A stretch of 64,000 nucleotides of DNA from Nitrosomonas sp. (GCF_019752095.1 NZ_JAIEMO010000030.1:1144-65143); one strand, 5' to 3'. Shown: positions 10,556 through 15,976, counted from the first letter of the stretch. Notes: a model not told the origin generated them from the letters alone. A program made the numbers and translations.

Positions 10556-11983
10556 TTAGAGTACAAAATCGGCAGCAGCGAGTACGTGAAGTCCATTTAA
10601 TTGGATTTCCATATCGACGACTAAATTGCCATCACCTTCAAACTCTGCCTGGACAATGGTCATGTTATTGACAGCATCTTGAAAATATCGGACTTCACCA
10701 CCACCGGCGAAATTACCCGTACCTTTGAAAATGAACGCATTATCAGCACCACCACTCACAGCATCGATGGATGACAGGTCAATTTTATCAACCCCGGAGG
10801 TAAAACCATTGATGACATCTCGATTAGCACCGACAGCGCTTTCACTCAGCGCATTGTAGTCGAAAGTATCGTTGCCGCCACCACCAGACATCACATCCCT
10901 GCCGTCACCGCCGGTCAAGGTATCTTGCCCTAATCCACCAAAAATGATGTCATTGCCGTCCTGACCCAGAATCGTATCGTTACCATTTGCGCCATCTAGG
11001 GTATCCGCGCCACCGCCGCCTTTAATGGTGTTGTTGGAGGCATTGCCGGTGACATTGTCATTGCCATTGCCCATATAGGTATTTTCGAAACCGATATAGC
11101 TTTCACCGCCAAAGTTTGTCAGTCCGGTTGTCATATTGAATACATAGTTGCCATTAAAGACCGTATGATCAATGGTATCGACGCCTGTTCCGCCATTCAT
11201 GGTTTCACCACCAAGACCTGACTTCATGAAATCATTACCTGCATCACCGTTATAGGTTCCGCCGTCGCCATCGGAGGTGATCGTGTCATTACCGGCGCCG
11301 CCATTTAGCGTATCTACGCCTCCGCCGCCTTCCAGGGTGTCGTTACCTGCGTTGCCAAAGATCGTGTTGTTAGCATTATTGCCGGTTACGGTATCATTGC
11401 CTGCGCCCATTATGGCGGTTTCGAAATTGATATAGCTTTCACCGCCAAAGTTTGTCAGTCCGGTCGCCATATTGAATACATAATCTCCGTTAAAGACCGT
11501 ATGGTTAATGGTATCGACACCGCTACCGCCATCCATGGTTTCGCTACCAAGTCCTGAAAACATCAGATCATTGCCTGCATCACCATTATAGGTGCCGCCA
11601 TCTCCATCGGAGAGAATGTTGTCGTTGCCACCACCTCCGTTCAATTGATCGACACCGGCATTTCCTCGTAATATATCGTTGCCAAAGCCACCAAATATGA
11701 TGTCGTTACCATCATCTCCATTGATTGTGTCGTTGTCTGCACCGCCGTCGATGGTGTCATCGCCGCTACCACCATTTAGTATATCGTTGCCGCCGTTGCC
11801 GGTGATGTTATCGTTGCCACTGCCGCCAAAAACGGTATCAGGACCGCCCGCGCTGCTGATGGTATCGTTGCCGCCAAAACCATTAATGGTGTCGGCGAGT
11901 TGGGTTGCAAATCCGGAAACTCCGGGTGAGATGAGCGCAAACGAAATTGTGTCATTACCATTTGTTCCAGTGATATTAGCCAT
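10556..11983 (-). CDS. RTX (hemolysin-type Ca2+-binding) beta-roll protein 1, serralysin-like C-terminus, no catalytic domain
   Basis: Many GGxGxDxxx nonapeptides; two ~100-aa internal modules; C-terminal DKIDLSSIDA...DFVL; no HExxH. Confidence 0.9.
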   Translation of the reverse strand: MANITGTNGNDTISFALISPGVSGFATQLADTINGFGGNDTISSAGGPDTVFGGSGNDNITGNGGNDILNGGSGDDTIDGGADNDTINGDDGNDIIFGGFGNDILRGNAGVDQLNGGGGNDNILSDGDGGTYNGDAGNDLMFSGLGSETMDGGSGVDTINHTVFNGDYVFNMATGLTNFGGESYINFETAIMGAGNDTVTGNNANNTIFGNAGNDTLEGGGGVDTLNGGAGNDTITSDGDGGTYNGDAGNDFMKSGLGGETMNGGTGVDTIDHTVFNGNYVFNMTTGLTNFGGESYIGFENTYMGNGNDNVTGNASNNTIKGGGGADTLDGANGNDTILGQDGNDIIFGGLGQDTLTGGDGRDVMSGGGGNDTFDYNALSESAVGANRDVINGFTSGVDKIDLSSIDAVSGGADNAFIFKGTGNFAGGGEVRYFQDAVNNMTIVQAEFEGDGNLVVDMEIQLNGLHVLAAADFVL

Positions 11984-12497
11984 TTTGACTCCCCTTAAAA
12001 TAGATGAATTGATTTGTTGATTAGTTGATGGATTAAGAACATCAAGTGTCAGGTTACTAAATATTATCTATTCCGCCTGTGAGAAAAATCACAGAAATGG
12101 AAAGATTGCTAGCTTGAATATTGCGAGAAAAGACTCTTGTGTAATTTTCCTGCGGTGGTTAGATAACTAACTAGATATAATCGGATAAAAGATGATTGGA
12201 GTCAGAGATGGGGATAAGTTTGGGATCAATAGGACTGCCGTGTGTTGCGAGAATTACCAAGGCTGCTGAAGGATTCAACAGCCCCAAATCAACTTTCTAG
12301 TAGGTATTAAAGTACAAAATCGGCAGCAGCGAGTACGTGAAGTCCATTTAATTGGATTTCCATATCGACAACTAAATTACCATCGCCTTCAAACTCTGCT
12401 TGAACAATGGTTCTGTTATTTGCAGCATCCTGAAAGTATCGGACTTCACCACCACCGGTGAAACTATTCGTGCCTCTGAAAATGAATGCATTATCAG
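11950..12497 (+). repeat. 548-bp direct repeat, copy A
   Basis: Matches 13311-13858 at a constant 1361-bp offset, about 4 mismatches by eye. Covers the first codons of RTX1, the whole intergenic region and the last ~190 bp of RTX2. Confidence 0.93.
12051..12093 (-). promoter_or_regulatory. Class II CRP/FNR-family promoter of RTX1
   Basis: TGTGA-GAAAAA-TCACA at 12078-12093; minus-strand TAACCT at 12056-12051 puts the box centre at -41.5. Confidence 0.75.
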
Positions 12498-13344
12498 TAC
12501 CACCACTCACAGCATCGATAGTCGACAGGTCAATTTTATCAACCCCGGGAGTGAAACTATTGATGACGTCTCGATTAGCGCCGACAGCGCTTTCACTCAG
12601 CGCATTGTAGTCGAAAGTATCGTTACCACCACCGCCAGACATTACATCCCTGCCAGAACCTCCGATCAAGGTATCTTGCCCTAATCCACCAAAAATGATG
12701 TCATTGCCATCCTGACCGTAGAGCCAATCGTTACCATTTGCACCATCCAGAGTATCCGCGCCACCACCACCTTTAATGGTGTTGTTGGAGGTATTGCCGG
12801 TGACATTGTCATTGCCATTGCCCATATAGGTATTCTCGAAACCGATAAAGCTTTCACCGCCAAAGTTTGTCAGCCCGGTTAGCATGTTAAACTCATAATC
12901 TCCGCCAAACCATTGATGATCAATGGTATCGACCCCGGTACCACCATTCATGGTTTCGGGACCGTCGCCTGAAAACATCAGATCATCTCCCTCATCACCG
13001 TTATAGGTTCCACCGTCACCATCGGAGGTAATCGTGTCATTGCCGGAATCGCCATTTAGCGTATCTACACCACTGCCACCTTCCAGGGTGTCATTACCTG
13101 CGCCGCCAAATAGGGTGTCGTTACCATTATCTCCATTGATTGTGTCGTTGCCTAGGCCGCCATAGATGGCGTCATCGCCATTGCCGCCAAAAACCTTATC
13201 AGGGCCACCCGCACTGCTGATAATATCGTTGCCGCCGAAGCCCCAAATAGTATCGGCTAAATCTGTTGGAAAAGTGGGTATTCCCGGTGAGATGAATGCT
13301 GTCGTAATGATGTCATTACGATTTGTTCCAGTGATATTAGCCAT
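12307..13344 (-). CDS. RTX beta-roll protein 2 (short paralogue, one internal module)
   Basis: Same repeats as proteins 1 and 3; last ~60 aa identical to protein 3; one SDGDGG...TGLTNFGGES module instead of two. Confidence 0.9.
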   Translation of the reverse strand: MANITGTNRNDIITTAFISPGIPTFPTDLADTIWGFGGNDIISSAGGPDKVFGGNGDDAIYGGLGNDTINGDNGNDTLFGGAGNDTLEGGSGVDTLNGDSGNDTITSDGDGGTYNGDEGDDLMFSGDGPETMNGGTGVDTIDHQWFGGDYEFNMLTGLTNFGGESFIGFENTYMGNGNDNVTGNTSNNTIKGGGGADTLDGANGNDWLYGQDGNDIIFGGLGQDTLIGGSGRDVMSGGGGNDTFDYNALSESAVGANRDVINSFTPGVDKIDLSTIDAVSGGTDNAFIFRGTNSFTGGGEVRYFQDAANNRTIVQAEFEGDGNLVVDMEIQLNGLHVLAAADFVL

Positions 13345-13858
13345 TTTGACTCTCCTTAAAATAGATGAATTGATTTGTTGATCAGTTGACGGATTAAGAA
13401 CATCAAGTGTCAGGTTACTAAATATTATCTATTCCGCCTGTGAGAAAAATCACAGAAATGGAAAGATTGCTAGCTTGAATATTGCGAGAAAAGACTCTTG
13501 TGTAATTTTCCTGCGGTGGTTAGATAACTAACTAGATATAATCGGATAAAAGATGATTGGAGTCAGAGATGGGGATAAGTTTGGGATCAATAGGACTGCC
13601 GTGTGTTGCGAGAATTACCAAGGCTGCTGAAGGATTCAACAGCCCCAAATCAACTTTCTAGTAGGTATTAAAGTACAAAATCGGCAGCAGCGAGTACGTG
13701 AAGTCCATTTAATTGGATTTCCATATCGACAACTAAATTACCATCGCCTTCAAACTCTGCTTGAACAATGGTTCTGTTATTTGCAGCATCCTGAAAGTAT
13801 CGGACTTCACCACCACCGGTGAAACTATTCGTGCCTCTGAAAATGAATGCATTATCAG
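13311..13858 (+). repeat. 548-bp direct repeat, copy B
   Basis: Near-identical to 11950-12497. Confidence 0.93.
13412..13454 (-). promoter_or_regulatory. Class II CRP/FNR-family promoter of RTX2
   Basis: TGTGAGAAAAATCACA at 13439-13454; same -10 as copy A (part of the repeat). Confidence 0.72.
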
Positions 13859-15095: not shown

Positions 15096-15209
15096 TTTGA
15101 ATCTCCTTGAAATTAAAGATTAGAATTGAAGATAAATCTCCTTAAAGATTGATAAATTGTCATTAAAAAGATGAAGATCATCCAGTTTAGATGAGGATCA
15201 TCAGGTACT

Positions 15210-15252
15210 AGATTACTCAATACTGACTATGTTGACTGTGAGAAAAATCACA
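15210..15252 (-). promoter_or_regulatory. Class II CRP/FNR-family promoter of RTX3
   Basis: TGTGAGAAAAATCACA at 15237-15252 in otherwise diverged flanks; minus-strand TAATCT at 15215-15210 again gives -41.5. Confidence 0.78.
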
Positions 15253-15445
15253 ACGCTGAAACGATTTCCAGCTTCTTCATTATGGGATAATTTGCGGTTA
15301 GAATACAACCCTAAGTGGTTAGGTTGTTTGGTAATATACTGTTAATAATGGGAAAAAAATATTTATTCTCCTGGTTCTGTCAGTAGAAGTATATTTTTGT
15401 GCCTTGAGGGGAATTCTATGCCAATGCGGCTAAAGCATGCTCAAG

Positions 15446-15976
15446 CTATTGAGAAGTTGGAATGTTGAATTTCTCACTGGATTGGGCGGTACGAATATGC
15501 GCATCGACGAAAGCATTGACGCTGAGGCGTCCGGGGCGGGCACGACCATCTGGATAATGGCGTTTAAAATAGATCATTTTTTGAGCGCGTCCGATCTTGC
15601 GTAAGCGTTCGAGGAGTACGTGCGTGACATCGTTCGATTCCGATGCCCAAGCATTGATCAGCAGGATCTCACCAGCTCTGCTATCTTCGAAGGAAAGTTC
15701 GCCTTGCTCCGCGAGCCACATTTCACCCTTTTCTTGCGTGGTCAGTGCCCAGCCGAGAAATCCGACAATGTGCCCATTGTCGGATGCGATCAAATAGTGA
15801 CCGCGGTTAATTTGTCCAACCAGTATACGGGACCAGTGCCCGAACGGCAGGCGTGCGAATGCTGGTTTGGTCATCAAATAACTGACTGCGAATCCAAGTG
15901 CTTGCGCAGGGTTGATTCCCGTCAAAAGACGAGTCTTGGAAGTATCAATTTGTGTTGTTGATGATCTATCCGGCAT
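15446..15976 (-). CDS. HlyC/RtxC-like (toxin-activating acyltransferase family) protein, atypical active site
   Basis: Collinear by eye with HlyC (LG..VS, YLIASDNGHIVGFLGWA, LSFED..G), but SPLH is replaced by KPAF and the IDWIA Asp by Asn. Confidence 0.7.
   Translation of the reverse strand: MPDRSSTTQIDTSKTRLLTGINPAQALGFAVSYLMTKPAFARLPFGHWSRILVGQINRGHYLIASDNGHIVGFLGWALTTQEKGEMWLAEQGELSFEDSRAGEILLINAWASESNDVTHVLLERLRKIGRAQKMIYFKRHYPDGRARPGRLSVNAFVDAHIRTAQSSEKFNIPTSQ

Follow-up and report, generated by a model that had tools for sequence, protein, structure and literature searches.

Small HlyC-like proteins, the toxin-activating lysine-acyltransferases (TAATs), are textbook "toxin activators" of pathogens. 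What, then, is a gene of this family doing in Nitrosomonas, next to three RTX proteins that carry no recognisable toxin domain? We analysed this arrangement in a 64,000-nt stretch of DNA from Nitrosomonas sp. (GCF_019752095.1 NZ_JAIEMO010000030.1:1144-65143), hereafter the window, with all positions counted from its start. The original prediction had called the locus a candidate new system. We found that it is rather a widespread, automatically annotated variant of the known TAAT-RTX pairing, in which relatives of the HlyC-like protein recur beside RTX proteins that share a lysine motif. The reading that we favour, and to which we give about even chances, is that of a variant TAAT/RTX cassette whose non-cytolysin beta-roll substrate would be lipidated before leaving the cell through a type I secretion system (T1SS) encoded elsewhere.

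The RTX proteins and the recurrence of the pairing

The four genes lie on the minus strand, the HlyC-like gene (176 aa; 15446..15976) upstream of the tandem paralogues RTX-A (475 aa; 13668..15095), RTX-B (345 aa; 12307..13344) and RTX-C (475 aa; 10556..11983), as had been predicted. The sole Pfam family in the three RTX proteins was HemolysinCabind (E 1e-36 to 2e-56), and they are made up entirely of nonapeptide repeats, an insert that forms irregular beta-roll, and a C-terminus of the serralysin type whose last residues are AADFVL. Insert copies numbered two, one and two in RTX-A, RTX-B and RTX-C, the original count, both in the protein alignment and in a 300-nt DNA repeat family of five copies. 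HExxH and GxSxG motifs were absent from all three, and no hydrophobic segment was present, the maximum 19-residue Kyte-Doolittle mean being 0.97–1.16 versus 1.97 in E. coli HlyA. Pfam detected neither PF02382 nor any other pore domain in these proteins, and the acylated segment between pore domain and repeats does not exist in them. Motif scan, hydropathy and Pfam thus agreed with the earlier statement that protease motif, lipase motif and hydrophobic pore region are all missing.

The AlphaFold model of RTX-B (predicted local distance difference test score, pLDDT, 96; predicted template modelling score, pTM, 0.90) shows a single uninterrupted beta-roll, with strands approximately every nine residues from 31 to 245, followed by a small C-terminal sandwich. 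The internal module of about 100 aa noted at the outset is present, but in the model it is an irregular stretch of the continuous beta-roll and not a separate domain. In Foldseek, RTX-B matched PrtC, alkaline protease and serralysin best, each by its C-terminal domain, which bears out the description of the C-terminus as serralysin-like; CyaA RTX blocks and AlgE R-modules came next. Matches to NCBIfam models (serralysin, RTX hemolysin, SMc04171 and others) covered repeat and C-terminal parts only and fell far under the cut-offs: 135 against 625 for SMc04171, and 92–111 bits against 500 for NF035945, where the match spanned profile positions 324-461 only. Judged by their sequences, the RTX proteins are without the serralysin (M10B) catalytic domain, and Pfam, motifs, model and Foldseek together sustain the view that they are not cytolysins, proteases or lipases. 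PADLOC returned no defence-system match for the HlyC-like or RTX proteins. The ratio of nonsynonymous to synonymous substitution rates (dN/dS) was 0.17–0.29 among the paralogues and 0.10–0.15 against orthologues, and because these values (0.10–0.29 overall) indicate purifying selection we regard the RTX genes as working genes. On values of 0.1–0.3 we rejected the reading of the genes as pseudogenes or chance open reading frames (ORFs).

Relatives of the HlyC-like protein are numerous. A large protein collection held more than 735, called "toxin-activating lysine-acyltransferase" in the sources that name them, and the RTX homologues are automatically named "calcium-binding protein". A profile search of 1.84 billion representatives yielded 532 clusters (50% identity) at E<=1e-3 and 137 at E<=1e-30, so that the clade comprises at least 532 clusters and at least 71 species. 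We surveyed one genome per species, giving 71 loci with an HlyC-like homologue from Nitrosomonas, Methylobacterium, Bauldia, Accumulibacter, Rhodoblastus, Hansschlegelia, Enterovirga, Inquilinus, Mesorhizobium, Reyranella and many uncultured Alphaproteobacteria. By a mechanical criterion, a same-strand RTX ORF lay within 1 kb at 52 of the 71 loci. After manual correction of threshold misses and inclusion of opposite-strand neighbours, approximately 62 of 69 evaluable loci had an RTX ORF within 2 kb (two loci at a contig edge were left out), and for this reason the association is not one of chance.

The partners ranged from about 290 to more than 3000 aa in length. Seven large ones were scanned and contained HemolysinCabind, Peptidase_M10_C, Cadherin or PD40 domains only, and an internal hydrophobic domain was found in none of the 79 adjacent RTX partners. 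The original prediction had named a catalytic or pore-forming domain in the RTX proteins, or HlyC-like homologues that do not co-occur with RTX genes, as observations that would speak against it; it passed this test, with co-occurrence at approximately 62 of 69 loci and no internal hydrophobic domain in any partner. The association of this HlyC-like clade is thus specifically with RTX proteins that are not cytolysins. The pair is often an isolated two-gene cassette, as in Methylobacterium bullatum and Bauldia, where the surrounding genes are housekeeping genes and T1SS genes are absent from the vicinity.

Might the pair still be an unconventional membrane-damaging toxin or bacteriocin, in which the HlyC-like protein activates NodO-like channels against competitors, grazers or hosts? 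The databases' name for the HlyC-like protein would fit such a role, and cation-selective channels are formed by NodO, a 30-kDa RTX protein that likewise has no hydrophobic domain (PMC3034196). Copy number also points this way. Between the HlyC-like gene and an MsbA-related ATP-binding cassette (ABC) gene, which are syntenic anchors in Nitrosomonas (L005-L009 compared with window 8432-15976), there are 0, 1, 2 or 3 RTX genes depending on the strain, and tandem amplification of this kind is typical of conflict genes; single copies in metagenome-assembled genomes (MAGs) could come partly from assembly collapse. We nevertheless consider a toxin distinctly unlikely. A pore domain, whether hydrophobic or amphipathic, is missing from all 79 partners, and we saw no evident immunity gene. 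The bacteria concerned are nitrifiers and methylotrophs with a free-living habit, and the nearest structural relatives are R-modules and C-terminal domains that play a passive part in secreted enzymes. A role as a channel like NodO, or as a bacteriocin, overlaps with the reading of these proteins as lipidated beta-rolls.

A lysine motif shared by the partners

RTX-A, RTX-B and RTX-C contain just two, three and four Lys (0.4–0.9%), compared with 81 (7.9%) in HlyA. The only Lys common to all three lies in ...NNTI-K-GGGGADTL..., as K321 of RTX-A (K-GGGGAD encoded at 14115..14135), K191 of RTX-B (12754..12774) and K321 of RTX-C (11003..11023), each on the minus strand and each a predicted modification site. 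The orthologue at L001/L002 has one Lys in 475 aa, and it is at the motif site. KGGGGxD occurred in 48 of the 79 adjacent RTX ORFs and at 40 of 57 loci. As controls we took 120 RTX proteins retrieved only by their similarity to RTX-B, of which six had the motif (Fisher P = 2e-18 against the partners, shared ancestry ignored). The residue preceding GGGGxD was Lys in 38.8% of cases in the partners, where Lys makes up 1.1% overall, and in 8.6% in the controls. The extended consensus was G-x-x-G-[ND]-D-x-[LI]-K-G-G-G-G-[AN]-D-x-L-x-G-G; cyanobacterial homologues read I-N-GGAGND in the orthologous column. None of the three motif-negative controls inspected, including Microcystis P0121, had an HlyC-like neighbour. 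The sequences thus show a motif that is strongly enriched near the HlyC-like gene, although it is neither universal nor sufficient.

In the RTX-B model, K191 ends the strand 189-191, directly before a Ca2+-binding turn, and residues at this position point outward in GGxGxDxUx RTX rolls. The four glycines that follow would let the Lys reach into an enzyme's groove while the chain is still unfolded. We propose that the Lys of [LI]-K-GGGG-x-D is the site of modification. HlyA differs here, its sites being G-K sequences upstream of the repeats (RRQSGK564 and EVSVGK690, read from the real hlyA gene) rather than a Lys inside a nonapeptide repeat. The hlyA sequence thereby disproves a placement of K690 within a GGKGND repeat, under which the present motif would have looked canonical.

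The motif also bears on the simplest alternative, that the adjacency means nothing and the HlyC-like gene is a housekeeping or unrelated GNAT-like gene beside an RTX insertion hotspot. In four Nitrosomonas genomes the HlyC-like gene and the MsbA-related ABC gene are immediate neighbours, not separated by any RTX gene, and orphan copies are still under purifying selection (dN/dS 0.08 for L006 versus L008), as a housekeeping role would have it. On this account, however, RTX neighbours would not be expected to recur in unrelated contexts across Alpha- and Betaproteobacteria, and the co-varying Lys motif is hard to account for. Meaningless adjacency is therefore very improbable, and coincidence is effectively excluded.

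The HlyC-like protein and what it might do

Pfam assigned residues 26-127 of the HlyC-like protein to PF02794 (HlyC) with 29.6 bits, against a gathering cut-off of 25. No NCBIfam model matched it, and sequence searches of the PDB with phmmer, using the single protein, and with a 20-sequence clade profile did not find ApxIC; the link from this clade to TAATs comes solely from Pfam, hhalign and fold comparison. In Foldseek, the top three matches of its AlphaFold2 model (pLDDT 85.4) were chains of 4WHN (ApxIC; TM 0.61–0.65), with generic GNATs after them. When the clade was compared by hhalign with canonical TAATs (HlyC, EhxC and two CdiC-type proteins, with sequences from real records), the alignment was ungapped with an offset of 17 (probability 95.3%, E 2e-8) and anchored at L-G, P38/P21, G102/G85 and W110/W93.

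TAATs have a His (HlyC His23, ApxIC His24, CdiC His37) and an Asp (HlyC Asp92, ApxIC Asp93, CdiC Asp107) at two corresponding positions. The two residues form the catalytic dyad (PMC8339906, PMC8510554), and the His has been described as "conserved throughout RtxC proteins" (PMC8339906). By alignment and model, the protein from the window is a TAAT by fold and not by active site, and so is atypical, as had been suspected. Its gene is under strong purifying selection (dN/dS 0.07–0.14), which argues that it is functional. The clade has its own signature (KPAFA, GQINRGH, INAW, YFKRHYxDG) and its own invariant or nearly invariant polar residues: Lys37, Gln55, Asn57, Arg58, His60, Asn108, Lys138, Arg139, Tyr141, Asp143, Arg147 and Arg150. 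Candidates for an alternative active site among these are Gln55, Asn57, Arg58, His60 and Asn108, with the qualification that His60, at the start of strand beta-2, would by GNAT topology be expected to lie away from the catalytic groove. The basic members (R58, K138, R139, R147 and R150) would fit a surface that has kept its binding of acidic acyl-acyl carrier protein (acyl-ACP).

Some clade members are built differently. P0257, P0312 and P0327 (also P0260) are fused to the C-terminus of proteins of about 550 aa that carry TPR repeats and a sulfotransferase-like P-loop (VFIVGMPRSGTT), recognised by eye and not by hidden Markov model; in two of the fusion proteins the His60 position is Gln. P0241-P0243 are tandem double-domain proteins.

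Several findings weigh against lipidation by this protein. HlyC His23 aligned by hhalign to Phe40, and Asp92 to Ala109. Position 40 was Phe in 72 of 73 genomic homologues and, in the 148 top representative clusters, F, Y or aliphatic and never His; position 109 was A, V, C or G in the genomic homologues and A, V, I, C or L in the representative clusters, and never Asp. Catalysis would thus require an active site other than His/Asp, and it is because the enzyme is without both residues thought essential for TAAT catalysis that we hold the favoured reading at no better than even. The strict motif was missing from the partners at 17 of 57 loci (Inquilinus, Mesorhizobium, Reyranella and others). 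No HlyC-like gene lay within 6 kb of three controls that do bear the motif (P0130, P0196 and P0235), and as a predictor of adjacency the motif was rejected, since none of the six controls checked, three with it and three without, adjoined such a gene. At seven loci, including four from Nitrosomonas, the HlyC-like gene was an orphan, the 10 kb around it being free of RTX genes. The 64-kb window does not encode a T1SS, and no RNA runs matched the locus sequence, the matches being to DNA metagenomes only.

The loss of the dyad raises the main alternative, that the HlyC-like protein is a catalytically dead pseudo-TAAT, which binds the unfolded RTX protein, perhaps at K-GGGG, as a dedicated chaperone, anti-folding factor or secretion adaptor and leaves it covalently unmodified. 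The non-reactive Phe and Ala at the dyad positions across the clade, the tight linkage to RTX genes and the strong conservation of fold and surface residues would all be expected of such a protein. Against this, when proteins that have shed nearly all their Lys still keep a particular one, this is a classic sign of a modified residue and not of mere contact. The catalytic residues of GNAT-fold enzymes vary widely, and the clade has kept an invariant His60, a nearly invariant Asn108 and several basic residues. CdiC with the substitution His37Ala also keeps some activity when overexpressed (PMC8510554). On balance we think a pseudo-TAAT unlikely, if not strikingly so.

The favoured reading, lipidation followed by export, would run as follows. 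The HlyC-like protein would recognise the unfolded, Ca2+-free RTX polypeptide in the cytoplasm and modify the single conserved Lys of [LI]-K-G-G-G-G-[AN]-D, most likely by fatty acylation from acyl-ACP. The modified protein would leave through an unlinked T1SS by means of its C-terminal ...DFVL signal and, outside the cell, fold in a Ca2+-dependent manner into a rigid beta-roll with one lipid on its flat face. This lipid could tether the protein to a membrane or lipopolysaccharide (LPS) surface, either the cell's own outer membrane or that of another cell. The RTX genes would be transcribed separately, each under the control of a CRP/FNR-family regulator with TGTGA-N6-TCACA as its binding site.

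Part of the support for lipidation comes from CdiC, a TAAT that lipidates the non-RTX protein CdiA at one Lys and thereby raises its affinity for an outer-membrane or LPS surface; the target Lys is kept only alongside the acyltransferase gene, and this co-variation was used to find it (PMC8510554). Because CdiC lipidates a protein that is no pore-former, with a similar co-variation of Lys and enzyme, it lends support to our reading, and because CdiA is not an RTX protein, the original prediction's premise, which limits the substrates of TAATs to pore-forming RTX toxins, no longer holds. Class IV contact-dependent inhibition (CdiC/CdiA) is the functional analogy that we favour, since in both cases a TAAT would have been co-opted for a non-pore-forming secreted protein. 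It differs in that CdiC retains the His37/Asp107 dyad and that CdiA is a filamentous protein secreted by the type V pathway, whereas the substrates here are beta-rolls of the RTX/T1SS kind.

Other known systems resemble the cassette in part. HlyC/HlyA, CyaC/CyaA and ApxIC/ApxIA likewise have a small GNAT-like TAAT gene immediately upstream, on the same strand, of an RTX gene whose product has a C-terminal T1SS signal, and a specific internal Lys is the expected target in HlyA-type proteins as it is here. Unlike HlyC, with His23 and Asp92, the protein from the window has Phe and Ala; ApxIC went undetected by sequence with the clade profile; and the hydrophobic pore domain and acylated segment of HlyA-type toxins have no counterpart in these substrates, to which hlyBD-type genes are also unlinked. 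The C-terminal domains of PrtC, AprA and serralysin, together with NodO and the SMc04171 family, share the beta-roll and C-terminal sandwich fold and a C-terminus ending in Asp and hydrophobic residues, but the serralysin family has a protease domain that RTX-A, RTX-B and RTX-C do not. For the known members of this group, small enzyme-less RTX proteins such as NodO included, no TAAT partner has been reported (PMC3034196). In MARTX systems, too, an HlyC-like gene (RtxC) is paired with an RTX protein (RtxA) outside the classical pore-formers, and whether acylation is needed there is debated (PMC3034196). MARTX proteins are multi-effector toxins of more than 3500 aa with rtxH and a dedicated rtxBDE T1SS, and nothing comparable is present here.

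Regulation, export, surroundings and meaning

Each RTX gene has its own upstream region, and those of RTX-B and RTX-C (323 nt) are nearly identical, with an 85-nt core that is 72% conserved before RTX-A. Every one of these regions contains a perfect TGTGA-N6-TCACA palindrome: at 15237..15252, 142–157 nt upstream of the RTX-A start codon (15095), and at 13439..13454 and 12078..12093, in both cases 95–110 nt upstream of the start codon, for RTX-B and RTX-C. These were the only three perfect copies in the window, where 0.07 would be expected by chance. The sequence is the CRP-type consensus of E. coli. It also occurred between the HlyC-like and RTX genes at L001-L004 and just upstream of the HlyC-like or RTX gene at many alphaproteobacterial loci; 17 of 24 exact sites in 1.23 Mb of loci fell in the 7.3% near cassette gene starts (binomial P ~1e-14). 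We therefore predict these sites to be CRP-type operators of the RTX genes. No CRP-family gene was found among the window ORFs scanned. A terminator-like hairpin of 12 pairs with a T-run follows the RTX-C stop codon (10515..10545, minus strand), related imperfect hairpins follow RTX-A and RTX-B, and an Rfam scan of the intergenic leaders gave nothing significant.

The RTX proteins have no N-terminal hydrophobic segment and end in ...AADFVL, as would fit T1SS substrates with an uncleaved C-terminal signal and no signal peptide. Two candidates for an exporter within the window were rejected. The ABC transporter downstream of RTX-C (590 aa; 8432-10204, minus strand) is not of the PrtD/HlyB type, as it matched TIGR02204 (MsbA_rel) with 823 bits, above the cut-off, and the PrtD model with 236 against 510. 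The sole pair of membrane fusion protein (MFP) and outer-membrane protein, an OEP and a CusB/HlyD_D23-type MFP (54210-56755), directly follows a 1053-aa ORF, presumably a resistance-nodulation-division (RND) pump, and for this reason it was not accepted as part of a T1SS. The three genes (OEP, MFP and the 1053-aa ORF) form an efflux-type operon at 51046-56755 on the minus strand. In the wider survey, HlyB and HlyD homologues adjoined the pair at 2 of 71 loci.

On the minus strand the gene order is PpiC rotamase, HlyC-like, RTX-A, RTX-B, RTX-C, MsbA-related ABC transporter. The PpiC-type parvulin rotamase gene (16018-16350, minus strand) ends 41 nt upstream of the HlyC-like start, so that a single transcript may cover both; another rotamase gene is found near the orphan HlyC-like gene of Nitrosomonas MAG_42 (L079). 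The other flank, 4776-10204, is a lipid and envelope neighbourhood that encodes MlaA (4776-5585), a PNP_UDP_1 phosphorylase (7573-8430) and the MsbA-related ABC exporter. The phosphorylase may be HpnG-like, and a 667-aa ORF at 5708-7711 looks to us, by eye only, like a squalene-hopene cyclase, so that a hopanoid-associated cluster may abut the RTX array. Further along are an AMP-binding acyl ligase, a decarboxylase dependent on pyridoxal phosphate and a GNAT (Acetyltransf_5) in a row (29563-33567), and a PEP-CTERM protein (59677-60318). This arrangement is reminiscent of exosortase-associated exopolysaccharide loci.

The nearest genomes belong to the Nitrosomonas ureae/oligotropha group, with 98% identity to MAG RBC090 and 89% to N. 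ureae Nm13, and the metagenomes containing the locus sequence, all of them DNA, came from drinking water, wastewater and a biofilter. Outside Nitrosomonas the closest relatives of the RTX proteins are cyanobacterial, from Microcystis, Synechocystis and Nostoc (for example L084, Microcystis aeruginosa MVGR01000004.1, 6001-7623). The insert sequence TGLTNFGGES is also found in cyanobacterial "calcium-binding proteins", and one Microcystis protein is 60% identical across 56% of RTX-B. These relatives share the TGLTNF insert, but end in ...DFVYGV/NFVYGL and are without the Lys motif. The pattern is a hint that freshwater cyanobacteria and nitrifiers have exchanged the beta-roll gene horizontally.

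How much of this is new? Both genes already have automatic names in the databases, TAAT-RTX pairs are textbook knowledge and CdiC is one precedent for a substrate that is not a pore-former. In a literature search of incomplete coverage we found nothing on this clade, on acylated enzyme-less or non-cytolysin RTX proteins, or on a Lys site within nonapeptide repeats. It is conceivable, at somewhat less than even chances, that these loci represent a widespread class of lipidated, T1SS-secreted beta-roll proteins of free-living Alpha- and Betaproteobacteria, with the Lys in the repeat and a TAAT-fold enzyme that uses a different active site; a modification other than a fatty acyl group would be a still more novel variant of the same class.

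If true, lysine lipidation of T1SS cargo would be a general route to surface-tethered, Ca2+-dependent proteins that extends beyond virulence, as the pairing with enzyme-less, pore-less RTX proteins in nitrifiers, methylotrophs and soil Alphaproteobacteria would show. The clade would also let nature itself show how catalysis by a GNAT-like acyltransferase can proceed when the supposed dyad is gone. Thousands of "calcium-binding proteins" are anonymous, and the Lys motif may tell which of them carry a modification. In the biofilms of drinking water and wastewater, a lipid-anchored beta-roll protein of Nitrosomonas under CRP-type control would be a candidate for a factor of the cell surface or of aggregation.

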